Assembly (NCBI GenBank): GCA_000004985.1
Contig: GG738889.1
Direction: 5' to 3' (one strand)
Length of the DNA stretch: 64,000 nt
Origin: Naegleria gruberi
Taxonomy: Eukaryota
Shown here: positions 25,125 to 34,905 of the stretch, in pieces
Position numbering within the stretch: position 1 is the stretch's first letter
Layout of the letters: every line of letters starts with the position of its first letter
Notes under the pieces: generated by a model
Database searches by the model: none
Told to the model about the DNA's origin: nothing
What the model saw: the letters and a program-made list of their open reading frames with translations, nothing else
Translations under genes and position numbers: made by a program

Positions 25125-25833
25125 CTAAGCATATTGGTAATAACCATTCATTTCTATCATTTTCGTCTCTTCTTCATTAGAGTGCTTGTTGTATCGAATT
25201 GTTTGAGCTATTAAGATGGTAACAAGTCCAACCATAGAAATGCACAGCACTGAAACCACTATTGCAAGAATAGTGATTGCTATATCTTGACCTTGGTCAC
25301 TGGATATATGGACTGAATCACTTGGTTTTGGATGATAGTTGGTTCTGGTCTTGGAGGAGTTGGAGTTGGAGGAGTAAGAACTTTGGCAACAATCAACAAG
25401 TCATACCTTTCAATTAGAATAGTTTCTGAACATTTAAGAGTGATAATTGTTCCATTCTTAATGTCCTTAATTCCATAAATAACTCTATCAGATAGAATGT
25501 AGACACATTGAAGTGATGAAATGTCAGATATCGTATTTCCATTCATGTCTCTCAACTGATCAGTGAATGTGAAAGTTCTATCTGTAAGAATGTCAGATTT
25601 AACTGTTTGTACAATGGAAAAACCTTTAACCTTTTGAAAACCTTCCAACAGAGTTGAATCATGATTTCTTTATNNNNNNNNNNNNNNNNNNNNNNNNNNN
25701 NNNNNNNNNNNNNNNNNNNNNNNTTGTCATTACCTCTCCTCTCACAGCATGCATGATGCAGTGAATTGTTAAGAGTGCCAATGAGCACCACTACACGTTT
25801 AAGGATGCCCACTGCTATTGAAAATAACAACAA
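25125..25833 (-). CDS. predicted type I membrane protein (signal peptide, Thr/Pro stalk, one TM, short tail), broken by a scaffold gap and a probable frameshift
   Basis: ATG at 25833..25831 gives MLLFSIAVGILKRVVVLIGTLNN (signal-peptide-like), then the N gap 25674-25723. The main ORF 25280-25648 ends ...TPPTPTPPRPEPTIIQNQVIQSIYPVTKVKI*. The +2 frame stays open across that stop and encodes QDIAITILAIVVSVLCISMVGLVTILIAQTIRYNKHSNEEETKMIEMNGYYQYA* (TM plus tail), with a stop at 25127..25125. Confidence 0.4.
25674..25723. other. assembly gap (50 N)
   Basis: Run of N. Confidence 1.
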
Positions 25834-25936: not shown

Positions 25937-27830
25937 TTACAATTTTGCATTCTTTTCAACAAATTCCTTAACGTGTTCTCTTGGAGTGAAATAGAGTGGA
26001 TTTTTCTTCGAGTCAATATACAGCAATGACTGATCGAAAGAAGTTGGAGGAAGAACTTCTGGATTTTCATGAGATAATTTGAAATGTCTGACAGCATTAA
26101 TAATACCAAAGTAGAGTTCAGTACTTGCAATACGTGATCCTGGACATTTACGAGCTCCAACTCCAAATCTAAGTATTGTAAACATTCAAATGGTCAATTA
26201 GGATGAAATTTTGCAAAAAAACTTACGGAATGGAAACAAAATTATTGACAGGTGCCAAAGGAGATCCCTTTTCATGACGTTCTGGAATGAATTCTTCACC
26301 ACGTGGAACATATTCATCCTTCATTGTGGCCCATCTTTGCATGGCAATGATAATTGTATCTTTTGGAACTGTATATCCACCAATTTCTGTATCTTGGCTC
26401 AATTGTCTTCCCATAGTGAGATAGGAGAAGGAATTTAATCTCAAAACTTCTTCAACAAAGTTTTTAGTGAGCTTGAGCTTTTTGTAATGTTCCTTTGCTA
26501 TTACAAGTCCATTTTCTGAAGTCATTTCTTCAATGGTTGGTTCACCGAAAATTTCAACACTTTCCTTATAAATCTTTTCCTGATATTCTGGATGGTGAGC
26601 AAGTCTGTACAAGCAGTGACCTTTACAATTGGTCAATTGGGACATGAGTTGTGAAAAACTTACATAAAATTCTTACTGTAATATCAATGCCAGCTTGTAA
26701 AAAGTTAATCATGACACTTTCAATTCTGGCATTTGCTTGATCTTGATCTTTAGCTCTATTTTCCAATAATTCCAATAATCTTTCCTTTTCGGATGGATTA
26801 GTTTTGAATCTCTGAATGCAATATCTTGCAAATTCGTATGATTTATCATAATATGTTTCAAATTCCTTAAATTCCTTGGTTTTGTAAAGTCTGTAGAATG
26901 GTGGTTTGTGATCCAACATGATTGCCATATCGAGAACAGAAACTGAATATTTCACAAAGTCACGAATTTCAAATGGAAGAGATTTTGCAATGTCATCAGT
27001 CATTTTCACACCCTATTTCATTAAATTACACAATTTCATTAAATTTCAATCGGTCAACTAGAAAAACTTACAAGGAAAACCTTCAAAACAGCATCAAAAG
27101 CATATCTTGAAGTAGTGTCAACAGTATTAAGCAATTGATACTTGTCACTTTGAGGAACATGTTTCATATTAGCAACAAGTCTTCTCAAAAATTCACCATT
27201 CAATTCAGTCAACTGTGGAATTGTAATATTTTCTTGGAATTCAGGTCTCATGGCAATATTAAACAATTGACGAATTGAATTCCAATCTTCATCAAGTCTC
27301 AACTCAACTGGAGAAAGTACCAAACCTCTTGGTTCTTTATAATATCTAGTACTTTCCAATAACTTTCTTCTATCTTCCTTTTTAAACAATTCAGATAACA
27401 CATATGGATTAGCAATAATCAACATGTTAGTTCCAAACACAGTCAACTTGACTAAATCTCCATATGTATCACACAGGGAAAGAAAATACCCAGAAGGATT
27501 GAATGCATTCTTCTTAATGTCAATTAAATTGCCGATCAGTGGCCATGGCTTTGGTCCAGGAACTTGATTCCAAGGTTTGATTTCCTTTATAGTATTGGCA
27601 ACGTTTTGATGATAGGGACAACCAGCTGTTTGATTTGTTGAATTGTCAGTTTCGACTGTTTGTGCAAGTGTCGAATTTTCCTTGTTATTCGATGTGAAAT
27701 GTCTTGTTTGAGTGGTGGCAGATGAGATCAATGATTGTGAATTTTTAATAACTGCATTACTACTACTACGTAATAATAAACAACATGTGTTTGAGGTGGA
27801 AGTTGTTCTTGTCAAGAGTTTGGAAAACAT
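25937..27830 (-). CDS. cytochrome P450 monooxygenase with N-terminal presequence-like extension; 4 exons
   Basis: ATG at 27830..27828. Exons are 27072..27830, 26664..27012, 26227..26620 and 25937..26168. Introns are 27013..27071 (GTAAGT), 26621..26663 (GTAAGT, 43 nt) and 26169..26226 (GTAAGT). Intron 2 was chosen because it restores canonical I-helix spacing, AGIDIT-VRILCHC-LYRLAHHPEYQ, matching AGxDTT-x7-LYxLAxxPE. P450 motifs are PGPKPWPLIGNL, ExxR and the heme loop SIP|FGVGARKCPGSRIASTEL split by intron 3. The N-terminal 60 aa are S/T/R-rich (MFSKLLTRTTSTSNTCCLLLRSSSNAV...). Confidence 0.8.
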
Positions 27831-28484
27831 TTTTTTTTTAGTAGGAAATTAGAGACGGACGGGGAATATATGTGTGATATTATTTGAGATAGTAGATGGA
27901 ATGTGATGATGATGCGATTAGAGCGAAGAGGAGGAAGAGGAAATGCGATACGTCTTTGCACAAGTTACAAAATAGTTGTAAAGTTTCGGATATCAGTTTC
28001 AGAATTTTCAAAGATCAATTATGAAAGTTACTTCAAACTGATTGCACACTTTCAATTATTGTATACTACTTGGGTGTAAATGGGTGGTTAGGGTAAATAG
28101 TTTCATTATTCTTTAGTTGCTTTCCTTGTGAAATTCTGAGTCACTAACTTTTCACAAATACGAGGAAGAGTTTTTTCGAACTTTTTGAATAGATGTGTGG
28201 AAAGAAGGTTTACTTTCGAATTATACGAATTTTTAGTTCTTCATCTGGTGTTATTCGTGCAGTTTCTTCTGTAGCTGGTGTTGGAAAGGTTTCGTTTAGT
28301 TTGATTTTGGTCTTGTTTGTTATTTGGCTTGTCATTGTGATGTTTTAAACAATTAAAGATGAAAATTAAGAAATATTAGAACTTGTTTTTGTAATATATC
28401 TCTCAATTAGGACATTATAATATTATTCTATCCGAATCATCACAAGATTCTAATAATAACAACAGATATTATTAAAAAAATTAC

Positions 28485-29828
28485 ATGATTAAAGCTTCTT
28501 TGAAACAGTTAATATTCAAAGCAACAAAACCTCATCATCTATTAATCAATATTTTTCATCATCCGAAAGTAAACTATTCTTTAAACTATTCTAAAATGTC
28601 TTCCGAACAAACTTCCGAATTGAAAAAGTCCATCGAGAAAATTAACGAAGAAATTTTGAAAATTGAAAAAGACTACCAAGAACAAGGTGATTCGAATAAA
28701 GTCAAACTAGTCTCTGAATTATCTGAAAGTTATGTGAACAGAGCTACCTTTCACATTGCATTAGAAGATTTCAAAAGTGGAATGGACGACTTAACACAAG
28801 CTGTTTTATTCAATCCTGGTAATTCTCAAGCTTGGTTAATGAGAGCTTTGATGAATTTTGAAAAATTTGGAAATTTACAAAAATCCTTGGAAGATTACAA
28901 TAAGGGAATTGAATTGGATTCAACAAATGTTGTTGCACTCAATAATAGATGTAAAATTTATTTGGAATTGAAAGAGTTTGATAAGGTTTTGAAGGATTCA
29001 TCTCTTGTTATTGATTTGTTGAAATTGGAGGGAGAATTGGGAGCTACTGTTGAGAATGGTCAATTGGCATATGATCCAAATGAAATGTTCATCAAGGCAC
29101 ATATGAATAGAGTTATTGCATTGATGGGAAAGGGTGAATTTGAAAAGGGATTGAGTGATTTGAGTGAATTAATTAAGAGAATTCCAAAGGATAAATTACC
29201 AAAGGAATTGGCAAATGTTTATGTGTATAGAGGATCTCTGTATGAACAATTATCTCAACCAGAGAAGGCCCTTGATGATTTTAATAATGCCATCAAGATT
29301 GATGCATCAAATGGAGATGCATGGAGTTCCAGAGCTTTTAGTTATATTGAAAAGGAGGAATATGGAAAAGCAGTGAATGATTTTTCAAAGCTAATTGAAA
29401 TTGATCCAACCAATGAGTCAAGTTATAGAAAGAGAGGAAATGTTTACATGGTTATGGAAAAATTCGAAGAAGCATTGAAAGATATCAATAAGAGTATTGA
29501 ACTCACTTCATCCGATGAGAAGCTCAAGTCAGCCCTTGAAGAATCACTCAAAGTAAGAGGTGCCATCTATCAAAATCTTGGAGAATTCTCAAAAGCTATT
29601 GAAGATTTCCAAAGAGCCATCGAACTCGAACCAAACAATTATGATGTCCTGATTAGCATTGGAAATTTATATTTGAATGAGGAAAATTTCAATCAAGCTC
29701 TTGAATACTATGAAAAAGCTCAAACTTTGCAACCATCTGAAGAATTATCCAAATTAATTGAAAAGATTAAGAGTGGAGAGCTCAACCAAGAACAACCCAA
29801 TTCTGGCTCAAATTGCATCATTAATTAA
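28485..29828 (+). CDS. tetratricopeptide-repeat (TPR) protein
   Basis: ATG at 28485, with an alternative ATG at 28596 (MSSEQTSEL). There are about 10 TPR units, for example AWLMRALMNFEKFGNLQKSLEDYNKGIELDSTN and AWSSRAFSYIEKEEYGKAVNDFSKLIEIDPTN. Confidence 0.75.
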   Translation: MIKASLKQLIFKATKPHHLLINIFHHPKVNYSLNYSKMSSEQTSELKKSIEKINEEILKIEKDYQEQGDSNKVKLVSELSESYVNRATFHIALEDFKSGMDDLTQAVLFNPGNSQAWLMRALMNFEKFGNLQKSLEDYNKGIELDSTNVVALNNRCKIYLELKEFDKVLKDSSLVIDLLKLEGELGATVENGQLAYDPNEMFIKAHMNRVIALMGKGEFEKGLSDLSELIKRIPKDKLPKELANVYVYRGSLYEQLSQPEKALDDFNNAIKIDASNGDAWSSRAFSYIEKEEYGKAVNDFSKLIEIDPTNESSYRKRGNVYMVMEKFEEALKDINKSIELTSSDEKLKSALEESLKVRGAIYQNLGEFSKAIEDFQRAIELEPNNYDVLISIGNLYLNEENFNQALEYYEKAQTLQPSEELSKLIEKIKSGELNQEQPNSGSNCIIN

Positions 29829-29987: not shown

Positions 29988-31331
29988 ATGTTTAAATTGC
30001 TTCCTACTGTTTCCATCACACGATTCTCTTCCAATCATCATCAACAAACAGGTTGTGTTTTAAAGAAGGGAATTTTCGGAACACTAAATTCATCATTAAT
30101 TGGAGGAAGAAATTACTCTTCAATAATTCATGAAACGAAGGAGGAAATAATCAAGCCTTTTGCTTTACCATTCTCTGTTCTGACAAAGGCTCATCCATCA
30201 TCATTGGTATCCTTCGAGAATAATATTAAACACATGAGAGGAATTAATTTGTTTTCCGATGAGAATCATAATGCCTTCACTGAGGTAATTGCTCAGGCTG
30301 GTCATCATCCAGAAAAGTTGGTAAATCATTTGCAAGTTAATAGACAAGCTCATCCATTGATTTATCCATTTAATCATTCAGAGAGAAATAATGGAAGATT
30401 GGTTGTTTGTTTATTGGGTTGGTTGGGATCGAATTGGAAACATGTTGACAAGTTTGTGAATTGGTATGATTATTGTAATATTGAAACTTTGAGTACAATT
30501 CCACCAATTTTGTCAACCATTTCACCATCTCATACTCAGACAGTTTGTGAGGAATTTGTCAGACAAATGGAAGAAAAGATTCTGAATCATGAAATGGCTG
30601 ATAATACCACAATTATTTTCCATGTTTTTAGTGGAAATGGAATTCACATGTTTTCCAGATTGTTAGAAAATGAAAAATTTGTGGATAAATTCCTTCCAAG
30701 AACGAAGGGATTTGTCGTTGATTCTGCACCACCAATGTATAATTATGAAAGATTTACCGAGGGATTTGTTGGAGCCATAAAAACAGCAATGGGATCTCGA
30801 ATGGATAGAAACAAATCTAGAAAAGAAAATGCACCATCCTCCACCGATCAGAAACTCAAAATACTCAAAGAAGAACAAGCTAAAAGCAGAGAATTTTACA
30901 AACACTGGTTATTGACACCAGTTGTCTCCTCATTTTTCAAACTCTATTTCAATATGGGAGCTCGAGAACGATTTGAAAGATTGGAACAAACTCTAGTCAA
31001 CCACACCAAATCCATTCCAAAATTATTTATTTACAGTCATGGAGATGTTCTCATTCCTCATAGTGATATTGATTTTTATCTTTCTAAACATTTTGTTGAG
31101 GAACGTTTAGAAAGATTGGCTTATCAACAAGAAAAAGGTCAATCAGGTCCTGAACATGTTTCAGATAAGGAATTTGATGAATGGATCAAGACACACCACC
31201 AATCAGAAACTCAATTTTTACTTGATGAACTCGTTTTCCATGATTCTGATCATGTTTACCATTTTAAGGAACATCCAAGAGAATATAGTGAAAGAGTTTT
31301 GCGTTTCATTCATTTGAGTTCAAAGAAATAA
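29988..31331 (+). CDS. TMEM53/DUF829-family alpha/beta-hydrolase-fold protein
   Basis: ATG at 29988. Conserved blocks are RLVVCLLGWLGSNWKHVDKFVNWY (compare TMEM53 [23 protein letters not shown]), IIFHVFSGNG, VDSAPP and LFIYSHGDVLI. Confidence 0.65.
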   Translation: MFKLLPTVSITRFSSNHHQQTGCVLKKGIFGTLNSSLIGGRNYSSIIHETKEEIIKPFALPFSVLTKAHPSSLVSFENNIKHMRGINLFSDENHNAFTEVIAQAGHHPEKLVNHLQVNRQAHPLIYPFNHSERNNGRLVVCLLGWLGSNWKHVDKFVNWYDYCNIETLSTIPPILSTISPSHTQTVCEEFVRQMEEKILNHEMADNTTIIFHVFSGNGIHMFSRLLENEKFVDKFLPRTKGFVVDSAPPMYNYERFTEGFVGAIKTAMGSRMDRNKSRKENAPSSTDQKLKILKEEQAKSREFYKHWLLTPVVSSFFKLYFNMGARERFERLEQTLVNHTKSIPKLFIYSHGDVLIPHSDIDFYLSKHFVEERLERLAYQQEKGQSGPEHVSDKEFDEWIKTHHQSETQFLLDELVFHDSDHVYHFKEHPREYSERVLRFIHLSSKK

Positions 31332-32213: not shown

Positions 32214-34905
32214 TTATTGTTGGACTGGAGCTTGTTGTTGTTGTTGTGGAGGAGCTTGTTGCTGTTGTTGTTGAGGAGCTTGTTGCTGTTGTGGAATTTG
32301 TAAATTCATACCATAGTTCATCATTGCATCCATGTAAGGATCTCCTAATGAAGTCTGACCAGGTTGACTTCCATATTGAGATGGTTGTGTTTGACCTGGG
32401 TATCTACCATTAAACACCAAAGGTGAACCAGAAGTTGGAGAACCACCATTAATGGAAACGAAAGGTTGAGGGTTATTGTTATACGTTTGTTGTTGGTAAG
32501 GATCATAACCACCTTGTCCATAACTTTGTGGATATTGTTGACCGTATCCTTGTTGAGGATATTGTTGACCATATCCTTGTTGAGGATATCCTTGTTGTGG
32601 ATATTGTTGACCATATCCTTGTGAGGGTAACCTGTGNNNNNNNNNNNNNNNNNNNNNNNNNNNNNNNNNNNNNNNNNNNNNNNNNNGGTATGAGTGATGA
32701 AATTTGTCCTTGATGTCATTTGCAATGGATTCCTTGTTGGTGAACTATCAATTTTTGGATACGAGTACTATATCAGAAATATTGAATAATTTGAATTTCT
32801 TCTTGGATTATGCATTATCAGATGAAAATGTGAGAGTTTCAGTAGGTGTGGATACCTTACTTGATAATTGTATTGAATCTGCTTACAAATATATTAAGGA
32901 TCGTCAATATGTCAACAATCAGACTTCAAACTCTTATTATTTACATGCTGCACTCAAGAAAATATCCATGCTTCAAGCAAGAAGCTCTGCAATTGGAAGT
33001 TCTGGAAAGAGTAAGAAGGGTCCTTTCTTTTCTTCTGTTTTACATAGGAATACTGTATATGATTTCCCAAAATCTATTATTGACCCTGTTACAGAATCTA
33101 AAATAGTATTCTATTCTGATTTCTTTTCATTTGCTACTTTAAGTTCAACGATTGTGAAGAAACCTTTCGTTTCAGTACTGACCGTTTCGGATGATGTGTT
33201 TTCACTGAATAGTAGACTGGAAATGACTCATATATCTGAAAGTCAAACCACGTATTCGAAACTTATTTCTAGAATTGTGTCTATTGATTTCTCAGAACTG
33301 CCAGTTCAAGTAAATGGGAGTAAGATTTCCTACATCATTCCTTATAACACTACTGACAAAGAAGAACCAGCTCAATTTGCCAATTTAGAGTTACTTGAAA
33401 AGAACACAACTGTCACTTGTGGAGATTTCAGAAATGGATCACCAACCATCTTGAGAAGTGATTGCACATTACAAACAAGAAATACCACTCATGTGGTTTG
33501 TACATGTGTTAGTTTTACAAATGTCTTTGTTGTAGAAACTACAGTTGTGACCTATCATTCCTATGTCTATGTGGTTGCCATTGTAGTTTCTTCCATTGTA
33601 GCTTGTGTTTTATTCTTGCTGATTGCTATTGGTGTACTCGTCTCGATCATTAAAATTAGGAGAAACAAAGGAACAACTGCCAACAAACCAGAAACAGTAA
33701 CAAATACTTCAACCTTCTCACTCAGAGTTCAGGAAGTTGAAATTGAAACATCATCCTATGGAAGGGGTCAAACNNNNNNNNNNNNNNNNNNNNNNNNNNN
33801 NNNNNNNNNNNNNNNNNNNNNNNCTGTTGACCATATCCTTGTTGTGGATATTGTTGAGAATATTGTTGAGGATATCCTTGTTGTTGAGGGTAACCTTGTT
33901 GTTGCATTTGTTGAGGATATCCTTGTTGTTGTGGATATTGTTGCATTCCTTGTTGAGGGTAACCTTGTTGTGGATATTGTTGAGCATAACCTTGTTGTTG
34001 TGGATTTCCCTGTTGATAGCCAGGATAACTAACACCAACTCCAGCATTTATCAATGGAACAGTTGTTTGACCTCCTTGTTGAGTAGCTTGACCATATTGA
34101 CCTTTAATTTGGGTCATGTATTGAGTAAGGGTCGAAATAGATTGTTGCAAGCTGCTCCAATTAGCTTGTTGAGTAGATGTAACCATACTAGCAACGAGAG
34201 GTGTAATTTTATCCTTAATGAGGGCTGCATCATCTTGATCCAACAATGAAGGATCTGCTGCCAACAATTTGAGATTAGTATCAATGGTATTTACAGCATT
34301 ACTAACAAGGGCACAAGGGGAAATTGTTGACTGAGAAACAGGTTGTTGGCTTACTCCTTGTTGAGTATTTGGTTGCATGCCACCTTGTTGTTGAGGATAA
34401 CCTTGTTGCATTTGTTGAGGATAACCTGTTGTTGCATATTAGGCTGCATTTGTTGCATTCCTTGTTGAGGACTTTGTTGCTTTACTCCTCTGGTAATTCT
34501 AGTTTGTCCAATTGGAGTTGGAGGAGCTTGACCTTGTGGAGCAGGTTGATTTGGATTGGAACTCATTTGAATAGTTGGCTGTTGTTGGGATTGTTGAGAT
34601 TGTTGAGAGAAACAATATTGACCCAATCTATTAATCATGGAAATTTGAGTATTAATATTGTTAACATAGACACCAAGCTTGTTACTACTGGATTGCTGTG
34701 GTTGTTGGGATTGTTGGGATTGTTGAGATTGTTGAGGTTGTTGTGGTTGTTGCGGTTGCTGAGGTGGCTGAGGTTGCTGAGATTGCGACGGTTGAGTAGC
34801 TGCTTGTGCATTTGCTGAGGCAGATGCATCCTGAGCATTCACAACACTCAAGGCAACTAGACATAACACGAGGGATAAGCCCAATATATACTTTGGAGTG
34901 ATCAT
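32214..34905 (-). CDS. secreted Gln/Tyr/Pro-rich repeat protein (QQGYPQQ / GYGQQYPQQ repeats), interrupted by two gaps, an inserted foreign contig and a 1-nt frameshift
   Basis: ATG at 34905 gives a signal peptide, MITPKYILGLSLVLCLVALSVVNAQD, then a Q/S/P-rich region. An apparent single-G deletion near 34418 sits in ...caacagGttatcctcaacaa. Next comes a helical block, NAVNTIDTNLKLLAADPSLLDQDDAALIKDKITPLVASMVTS...QIKGQY, and a QQGYPQQ repeat array running into the gap at 33823. The same repeat frame resumes after the gap at 32636 (GYGQQYPQQGY...) and runs to the stop at 32216..32214 (...QQQQQAPVQQ*). Confidence 0.5.
32637..32686. other. assembly gap (50 N)
   Basis: Run of N. Confidence 1.
32687..33773 (+). 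pseudogene. isolated ~1.09 kb contig, between two gaps, that is a near-identical copy of the 3' part of the receptor gene (51055..52142); probable mis-scaffolded allelic/paralogous fragment
   Basis: The track ORF 32704-34032 protein (MSLMSFAMDSLLVNYQFLDTSTISEILNNLN...HVVCTCVSFTNVFVVETTVVTYHSYVYV...SYGRGQ) matches ORF 50569-52320 residues from about 164 onward, with only scattered substitutions. The nucleotide sequence 32687.. versus 51055.. differs at only a few percent of sites by eye. The copy ends exactly at the N runs on both sides and is embedded, on the opposite strand, inside the Q-rich repeat gene. Confidence 0.6.
33774..33823. other. assembly gap (50 N)
   Basis: Run of N. Confidence 1.

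Follow-up and report, generated by a model that had tools for sequence, protein, structure and literature searches.

Mitochondrial cytochrome P450s are usually thought to have arisen after animals split from fungi and plants, by retargeting of a microsomal enzyme (PMC10499268, citing Omura), and plants are said to be without the mitochondrial clan (PMC5688476). A gene on contig GG738889.1 of the heterolobosean amoeba Naegleria gruberi (assembly GCA_000004985.1) raises the question of whether an enzyme of this kind is also encoded by a discoban host. The gene lies at positions 25937..27830, on the minus strand, of the 64,000-nt stretch of DNA that we analysed (the window), and a preliminary description had likened its product to adrenodoxin-dependent mitochondrial P450s on account of a presequence-like N-terminus and two basic residues in the heme loop. 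Our analysis established the gene structure, the identity of the product as a P450, its membership of a family, the absence of a membrane anchor and its nearest relatives. The explanation that we favor, with a probability of about 0.7, is that the gene encodes a mitochondrion-targeted, nuclear-encoded P450 that belongs to a multi-copy heterolobosean family and has a ferredoxin-type electron supply.

A heterolobosean P450 family with presequence-like N-termini

The 577-residue product matched the Pfam p450 profile (PF00067) with E=2.2e-59 (201.9 bits), residues 91-547 aligning with profile positions 2-448 of 462. The P450 hallmarks FGVGARKCPG, EEVLR and PERH are all present and are conserved across the family. 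The P450 fold starts at a proline-rich hinge, PGPKPWPLIGN (residues 91-101; 27528..27560, minus strand, as for all features of the gene below), and is followed through the K-helix KLTKNFVEEVLR with its ExxR motif (residues 419-430; 26439..26474), the PERH variant of PERF/PERW (residues 482-485; 26274..26285) and the heme-thiolate loop FGVGARKCPGSRIA with Cys509 (residues 502-515; 26126-26167). The P450 call, as well as the heme loop and the N-terminus MFSKLLTRTTSTSNTCCLLLRSSSNAV quoted in the preliminary description, were exactly as described.

The best matches to the protein were N. gruberi 'predicted proteins' (63, 62 and 49% identity) and Willaertia magna proteins (60, 51 and 44%), together with sequences from N. 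lovaniensis and N. fowleri and metagenome open reading frames (ORFs). At least six N. gruberi family members were found (P0001, P0003, P0007, P0022, XP_002681146.1 and XP_002672174.1), the closest homologue in this species being P0001, which is XP_002672098.1 (NAEGRDRAFT_81316) and is 63% identical. Four marks of the family are all present in the window protein: CPY before the hinge, an I-helix reading D-[IVAL]-T, an RLAHH block and a heme loop with (K/R)CPG. CPY, R-x-A-H (within RLAHH) and D-x-T are invariant in 13 aligned sequences, and the basic residue before CPG is found in 12/12 members in which the heme loop is present. As far as sampled, the sequences place this multi-copy family in heterolobosean amoebae alone (Naegleria, Willaertia and relatives).

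The N-terminus has the composition of a mitochondrial presequence. The first 50 residues contain six Lys or Arg, no Asp or Glu and 20 Ser or Thr, and begin with an amphipathic stretch (hydrophobic moment, muH, 0.53). In a Kyte-Doolittle scan, no hydrophobic signal anchor was detected before the PGP hinge in any family member; the maximum 19-residue mean in this region (KD19) was 0.52 for the window protein and at most 1.12 for all members, compared with 1.53-2.53 for anchored P450s. The predicted presequence corresponds to residues 1-45 (27696..27830) and ends with R43-H44-F45. An R-x-(F/Y)-(S/T/H/A) motif is located 20-30 residues before the conserved core in 10/14 members, R43-H44-F45-T46 in the window protein, and the R-x-F/Y arrangement is the classical R-3 processing pattern. 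Similar R-x-F-S/H motifs occur in several bona fide mitochondrial proteins of N. gruberi in a published table (PMC8134430). In the AlphaFold2 model of P0001, residues 4-19 form a helix and the chain is disordered afterwards; this model is of moderate quality (predicted local distance difference test score, pLDDT, 70.5, with a poor heme loop), and was used only for the fold ranking described below.

The same published study, in which gradient co-fractionation was used to define 946 putative N. gruberi mitochondrial proteins (Horvathova et al., 2021; PMC8134430), lists three family members in Supplementary Data 2, Sheet 1. These proteins, XP_002672098.1, XP_002681146.1 and XP_002672174.1, have TargetP mitochondrial scores of 80, 70 and 79, and their best matches in nr are given there as insect 'cytochrome P450 301a1, mitochondrial' or '12c1, mitochondrial' (PMC8134430). 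All three share with the window protein the CPYH motif, the D-[IV]-T I-helix, RLAHHPE, PERH and an ARKCPGSR heme loop. The previously proposed presequence-like N-terminus, here without an endoplasmic reticulum (ER) anchor, is thus borne out by the lack of acidic residues, the low KD19 and the listing of these three relatives. The electron donors invoked in the earlier description were also traced, since the same sheet contains both an adrenodoxin-type ferredoxin (XP_002670556.1) and an NADPH:adrenodoxin oxidoreductase (PMC8134430). P450s go unmentioned in the main text of that study (PMC8134430); the family is previously undescribed, with N. gruberi members already listed, uncommented, in a published mitochondrial proteome. 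No relevant paper emerged from literature searches on Naegleria P450s with adrenodoxin or on mitochondrial-clan P450s of protists or holozoans, and P450 is absent from the text of the Andalucia mitochondrial-proteome paper. The N. gruberi table additionally holds a fourth, different mitochondrial P450, the best match of which is an Emiliania huxleyi 'CYP24A1' protein (PMC8134430).

Relationship to mitochondrial-clan P450s

A word-indexed homology search with the family profile recovered almost nothing beyond the family itself. We therefore rely on an exhaustive search, in which a profile of the database homologues was compared with 1.84 billion representative proteins. The best single-domain matches outside the family (145-205 bits) were mitochondrial-clan-like (mito-like) P450s, with a basic pair at Cys+3/Cys+4 in 80/102 of the single-domain matches and presequence-like N-termini in most of those inspected. 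Named animal matches were CYP49A1 (mayfly), a 25-hydroxyvitamin-D-1-alpha-hydroxylase-like/CYP27B1-like protein (nemertean), a CYP24A1-like protein (crinoid), CYP44 (amphioxus) and CYP3047B1 (rotifer), as well as two less specifically named P450s, one from a bivalve and one from a louse. Non-animal matches came from Luapelamoeba hula (Amoebozoa), Mesostigma viride (green alga) and Catenaria anguillulae (blastoclad fungus), along with a divergent Willaertia paralogue. We labeled the non-animal mito-like P450s P0038, P0041, P0149 and P0083; the two Luapelamoeba proteins have a CxG-R-R heme loop, while Mesostigma P0149 and Catenaria P0083 have only the Arg at Cys+4. No single-domain clan-3 protein was found in the top 150 of this search. 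Clans 2, 3 and 4 were represented there only by fused tandem models, at ~40-115 bits per domain, and the best domain of the clan-3-like sequences that we checked reached 62-68 bits, compared with 145-205 for the mito-like matches.

Fold comparison and tree building gave a similar placement. With the P0001 model as the Foldseek query, 21 CYP24A1, CYP11A1 and CYP11B chains ranked above the first CYP3A4. In a neighbor-joining (NJ) tree of 145 domains (Kimura distances, 200 bootstraps), the family was supported at 98%, the family plus the Willaertia paralogue at 87%, and a clade of the family with the protist and animal mito-like sequences, against clans 3+4, at 71%. In our reading, the closest relatives of the family are those of the mitochondrial clan. 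As to the phylogenetic part of the earlier proposal, the protein groups with the mito-like clade rather than with clans 3 and 4, but with only 71% NJ support and an unresolved backbone. Membership of the animal mitochondrial clan by descent is only moderately supported, given this bootstrap value, the replacement of PERW by PERH and scores against solved structures that tie with those of CYP3A4.

We then compared the residues considered diagnostic of the clan among the family, the protist-like sequences, the mito-like sequences and clans 2/3/4, with denominators that vary by position. A basic residue five positions before the ExxR motif of the K-helix (ExxR-5; Lys423 in the window protein) was found in 17/17 family members, 10/11 protist-like and 88/94 mito-like sequences but in 0/23 members of clans 2/3/4, most of which have Glu or Asp instead. 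This basic K-helix residue, of a ferredoxin-docking type, is the discriminating one, and may correspond to one of the K-helix lysines that contact adrenodoxin in CYP11A1-adrenodoxin docking. A basic residue at Cys+4 is general (family 12/12, protist-like 10/10, mito-like 89/92), and is also present in 14/23 members of clans 2/3/4. At Cys-1 the family is basic in 12/12 sequences, compared with 2/10 protist-like, 4/92 mito-like and 0/23 clan 2/3/4 sequences, and Arg at Cys-2 is universal in the sequences compared. The histidine of PERH is found in 12/16 family members, 4/9 protist-like sequences and none of the mito-like (0/94) or clan 2/3/4 (0/23) sequences; Phe at this position is the rule in clans 2/3/4 (22/23) and is rare elsewhere (family 0/16, protist-like 2/9, mito-like 2/94). 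The basic residues in the heme loop that had been put forward as a sign of the mitochondrial clan are real, but the argument drawn from them is weak because Arg at Cys-2 is universal, Arg at Cys+4 occurs in 14/23 others, Cys+3 is not basic and Lys at Cys-1 is a peculiarity of the family.

The family carries some mitochondrial-clan signatures and lacks others. With the animal clan (CYP24A1, CYP11A1, CYP11B, CYP49A1, CYP44 and CYP27B1-like) it shares a predicted cleavable presequence in place of an anchor, the basic ExxR-5 residue and Arg at Cys+4, as well as, presumably, an adrenodoxin-type electron supply. It differs in having Ser or Ala where the animal clan has Arg or Lys at Cys+3, Glu or Asp in place of Lys at ExxR-1, PERH in place of PERW, and Ile or Val in place of the catalytic I-helix Thr. 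It also has an additional invariant CPY(H) motif, is only ~22% identical to the animal clan and resides in a discoban amoeba rather than an animal. The label that fits the family best, in our view, is a variant of the mitochondrial P450s (class I, eukaryotic), one that is non-animal, is without three hallmarks of the clan and has two features of its own.

A number of results weigh against our interpretation. Three signatures of the clan are rare or missing in the family: a basic residue at ExxR-1 (family 0/17, protist-like 3/11, mito-like 91/94, clans 2/3/4 17/23), a basic residue at Cys+3 (0/12, 7/10, 77/92 and 0/23, respectively) and the Trp of PERW (1/16, 2/9, 90/94 and 1/23). When the single sequence was compared with the PDB, CYP3A5 ranked first (5e-23), ahead of an ancestral CYP11A1 (7e-20) and CYP24A1 (2e-18), and with the family profile the scores for CYP11A1 (127 and 123 bits), CYP3A4 (121.5) and CYP24A1 (117.5) were effectively tied. 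Mean identity is 22.4% to mito-like and 20.4% to clan-3-like sequences, a small margin, and identity to any P450 outside the family is at most 29%. The sample of domains in the NJ tree was biased toward search hits, the unresolved backbone inside the 71% clade includes the position of the family relative to the animal sequences, and about 17 of the ~105 mito-like and protist-like sequences were checked by name. With respect to localization, the mitochondrial listing covers three N. gruberi relatives, the window gene itself being known from sequence alone, and co-fractionation is not proof of a matrix location. The presence of the ferredoxin and its reductase is non-discriminating, because both are needed for iron-sulfur (Fe-S) cluster assembly anyway. 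Finally, the loss of the I-helix Thr (0/17) could reflect chemistry that proceeds without a redox partner, as discussed below.

Several of these observations are what would be seen had a mitochondrial family arisen within Heterolobosea from a clan-3/4-like microsomal ancestor, the anchor being swapped for a presequence and the K-helix Lys being convergent for ferredoxin docking. The lack of a basic residue at Cys+3 and at ExxR-1 and of PERW favors such convergent retargeting, as do the tie between CYP11A1 and CYP3A4 for the family profile, the top single-sequence match to CYP3A5, the 71% support for the joint clade and identity differences of only 2-3 points. CYP3A4 and CYP3A5 also have a similar Arg at Cys+4 in the heme loop and an I-helix that aligns with the window protein without gaps. 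CYP3A enzymes bear an N-terminal signal anchor. Against this scenario, the top 150 matches of the exhaustive search were filled by mito-like sequences and included no single-domain clan-3 protein, although clan 3 is far larger. The family also groups with the presequence-bearing P450s found in Amoebozoa, in a green alga and in a blastoclad fungus, and Foldseek placed 21 mitochondrial-clan structures before CYP3A4. We regard convergent retargeting as somewhat unlikely.

Under the explanation that we prefer, a ferredoxin-supplied mitochondrial enzyme, the precursor would be imported by way of its basic, hydroxyl-rich N-terminal presequence, which, judging from the sequence motif, would probably be removed after R43-H44-F45, near residue 45. 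The mature enzyme would be anchorless and probably peripheral at a membrane. Electrons would most likely pass from NADPH to adrenodoxin reductase and on to a [2Fe-2S] adrenodoxin-type ferredoxin, which would dock on the basic proximal face formed by Lys423 of the K-helix and by Lys508 and Arg513 around Cys509, and the enzyme would presumably act as a monooxygenase. As part of this explanation, P450s with presequences probably form a pan-eukaryotic group to which the animal mitochondrial clan belongs, and the family is likely to be either sister to this group or one of its deep branches.

A missing I-helix threonine and a conserved Cys-Pro-Tyr motif

The I-helix of the window protein, AGIDITVRILCHCLYRLAHH (residues 360-379; 26592..26694), spans intron 2 and has Ile in place of the canonical Thr after the acid. 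The (A/G)Gx(D/E)T pattern of an acid-alcohol pair, typical of the P450 superfamily although not obligatory, fails here: AGIDIT (residues 360-365; 26677-26694) keeps the acid, and the family consensus is (A/G)G(I/V)D-[I/V/A/L]-T, the residue after the acid being Ile, Val, Ala or Leu in 17/17 members. The catalytic Thr or Ser at this position is thus missing throughout the family (0/17), in contrast to 10/11 protist-like sequences and 95-100% of the mito-like (89/94) and clan 2/3/4 (23/23) sequences. By sequence comparison, the missing Thr suggests non-standard oxygen activation.

This family-wide substitution is the main support for a second alternative, in which the protein is a mitochondrial P450 but not a ferredoxin-driven monooxygenase, and instead rearranges or cleaves peroxides or hydroperoxides, or uses peroxide directly. 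Thromboxane and prostacyclin synthases and the CYP74 enzymes act by such partner-independent chemistry. However, the basic residues on the proximal face are strictly conserved (ExxR-5 17/17, Cys+4 12/12, Cys-1 12/12), as would be expected of a retained docking site, and the protein has canonical motifs in the heme loop, at ExxR and at PER. In addition, the Thr two positions after the acid is invariant and might substitute, and some true monooxygenases, such as P450eryF, are also without the canonical Thr. Peroxide chemistry therefore appears improbable to us. That the protein might be an ordinary ER (microsomal) P450 whose N-terminus only resembles a presequence, as could be argued from CYP3A5 being the best single-sequence PDB match and from PGP-hinge P450s being mostly microsomal in non-animal eukaryotes, is scarcely credible in view of a KD19 of at most 1.12 before the hinge in every family member, the absence of acidic residues from the first 50, the co-fractionation of three N. 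gruberi members with mitochondria and the replacement of the acidic ExxR-5 of other clans by Lys or Arg.

The second feature peculiar to the family is a C-P-Y-H motif at residues 71-74 (27609..27620), ~20 residues upstream of the hinge, which we consider a candidate heme-regulatory motif. C71, P72 and Y73 are invariant in 13/13 family sequences, usually followed by His, and are also found in the divergent Willaertia paralogue P0032. In the P0001 model the segment is disordered and has low pLDDT. Processing at the predicted site would leave the motif on the mature protein, as it lies C-terminal to that site. Heme-binding peptides of IRP2 (TPILCPFHL) and HRI (DESACPYVM) have micromolar or better affinity for hemin, and the Cys-Pro motifs in the ALAS presequence are reported, in work cited by the same review, to make mitochondrial import heme-sensitive (PMC10377097). 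The family motif resembles those of IRP2 (CPFH), HRI (CPY) and the ALAS presequence in that Cys-Pro precedes an aromatic residue and His, and in that the segment is flexible and near the N-terminus of a protein that is probably imported into mitochondria. Unlike those, it is located after a predicted cleavage site and in a protein that itself needs heme, and heme binding by it is putative. We also considered whether a Cys-Pro upstream of the hinge might be a general trait of the mitochondrial clan, but rejected this idea, as it was found within 60 residues in 12/114 non-family sequences compared with ~5% by chance. With an upstream Cys-Pro in just 12/114 non-family sequences, CPY(H) is family-specific. 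Amoebae account for 3 of the 12 non-family sequences with an upstream Cys-Pro.

Gene structure and wider significance

The P450 gene extends from an ATG at 27830 to a stop codon at 25937 and has four exons. In a three-frame translation of 27860-25900, the P450 reading switches frame at three short gaps that begin with GTAAGT, and joining the four exons gives a 1734-nt ORF (stop included) encoding the 577-aa protein. Exon 1 (27072..27830; residues 1-253) ends in phase 0 before GTAAGT and is followed by the 59-nt intron 1 (27013..27071; GTAAGTTTTT...ATAG). Exon 2 (26664..27012) encodes residues 254-370 plus one base, the 43-nt intron 2 lies at 26621..26663 (GTAAGTTTTT...TTGACC...AAAG), and exon 3 (26227..26620) is separated by the 58-nt, phase 2 intron 3 (26169..26226) from exon 4 (25937..26168), which includes the heme-thiolate loop and the stop codon. 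Each of the introns (59, 43 and 58 nt) starts with GTAAGTTTTT, contains a TTGACC branch-like element and ends with AG. This 10-nt start and the (A/T)TTGACC upstream of the 3´ AG, common to all three introns, have the look of a splice- and branch-site consensus that is strong and specific to the lineage and could help gene modeling in this genome.

The three tiny introns had been proposed previously, the 43-nt one on the basis of I-helix spacing, and the coordinates given for this one matched ours exactly. For intron 2, every GT..AG pair around 26621-26663 that leaves the complete coding sequence open was enumerated, and 26663-26621 was the sole choice that retains the family-invariant LYRLAHH block. 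With this choice, the I-helix aligns without gaps to 12 homologues and also to CYP3A5, and R375, A377 and H378 of the block are invariant in 13 family sequences. The alternative splice mentioned in the preliminary description, with a 10-residue spacer, could not be reproduced as a viable product; its GTAAGA donor is located at 26676, not 26672, and is in frame only with acceptors that remove the LYRLAHH block.

Two relatives allowed the junctions to be compared directly. P0005, encoded at 752-2422 of a 6-kb genomic contig (L002) and 55% identical, is a single uninterrupted 556-aa ORF with no introns, and P0004 (69% identical) is encoded without a break at junctions 1 and 2. The alignments of both proteins are gap-free at the junctions, and at the site of intron 1 both read straight through VFLGV(K/R)MT. 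The contig encoding P0004 has an intron (L003 1540-1592) at the identical position and in the same phase as intron 3, GTA CC|GTAAGT. At the level of sequence, the splice model is confirmed by homology, given the uninterrupted P0004 and P0005 and the conserved position of intron 3. The lack of introns 1 and 2 in the relative P0004 and of any intron in P0005 also indicates recent intron gain or loss within the family.

The window protein was absent from annotated databases. The only near-identical match to the locus was metagenome contig L001 (ENA ERZ929261, 2.5 kb), which is 98.6% identical at the DNA level to 26162-28605 of the window, introns included; by this measure, the ERZ929261 sample contains a strain, or a close relative, of the source organism. 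An upstream in-frame extension, as in the ORF P0009 predicted from the metagenome, was considered and rejected: a stop lies seven codons before the ATG in the window, and the equivalent Met is where the homologues begin. The L001 contig differs upstream of the ATG, probably in a T/A homopolymer, resulting in the artificially extended P0009.

When the window was searched with the spliced protein by tblastn, only one copy and no tandem P450 paralogues were detected. No functionally linked neighbors were found among the nearby genes, which encode V-ATPase-type proteolipid, tRNA-editing-domain, leucine-rich repeat, TRAF zinc-finger, tetratricopeptide repeat (TPR), DUF829 and major facilitator superfamily proteins. 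The TPR-repeat gene (28485-29828, plus strand) lies upstream of the P450 gene and is divergent from it, and is followed by the gene for the DUF829 protein (29988-31331, plus strand), the N-terminus of which (MFKLLPTVSITRFSS...GGRNYSSII) also resembles a mitochondrial presequence. The contig is part of a draft scaffold with runs of N (assembly gaps) at 25675-25723, near 32.6 kb and at 33.8-34.0 kb; the nearest lies 214 nt beyond the stop codon of the P450 gene, and the gene itself is untouched. At 33722-34905, each strand has long ORFs of low complexity with a high content of Q, P, G and Y (QQGYPQQ-type repeats); those of the two strands overlap, and an assembly gap breaks them.

The notion that mitochondrial-clan P450s are specific to animals, which had framed the preliminary description, is outdated, as a mitochondrial CYP450 of Toxoplasma has been published (PMC10499268) and mito-like P450s are present in Luapelamoeba, Mesostigma and Catenaria. 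The Toxoplasma gondii protein, TgCYP450mt (TGME49_315770), has been shown to be mitochondrial and, coming from a protist, is a precedent outside animals (PMC10499268). It can be compared with the heterolobosean family by description only: the partner studied for TgCYP450mt is a MAPR protein, and the parasite has a single gene, in contrast to the multi-copy family of the free-living amoebae. The surprise is limited by this precedent, as well as by the listing of N. gruberi members in the mitochondrial proteome. More speculatively, a ferredoxin-dependent mitochondrial P450 lineage might be older than animals and survive in a patchwork of groups (Discoba, Amoebozoa, green algae, early fungi and animals), and the CPY(H) motif, acquired by the heterolobosean branch just behind the presequence, might make the import of the apo-P450, its stability or its loading with heme depend on how much heme is available. 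We think this combined proposal doubtful.

The family, taken together with the sequences from Amoebozoa, Mesostigma and Catenaria, suggests for the class I mitochondrial P450 system an earlier origin or a wider distribution than the usual view holds, or else that it evolved repeatedly with the same docking solution. Two oddities of the family are testable: the conserved Cys-Pro-Tyr(-His) of a heme-sensor type on an enzyme that itself contains heme, and the missing catalytic threonine. One member of the genus Naegleria is a lethal human pathogen in which P450s (CYP51) are drug targets, and a mitochondrial P450 family with an N. fowleri homologue is accordingly of some practical interest.

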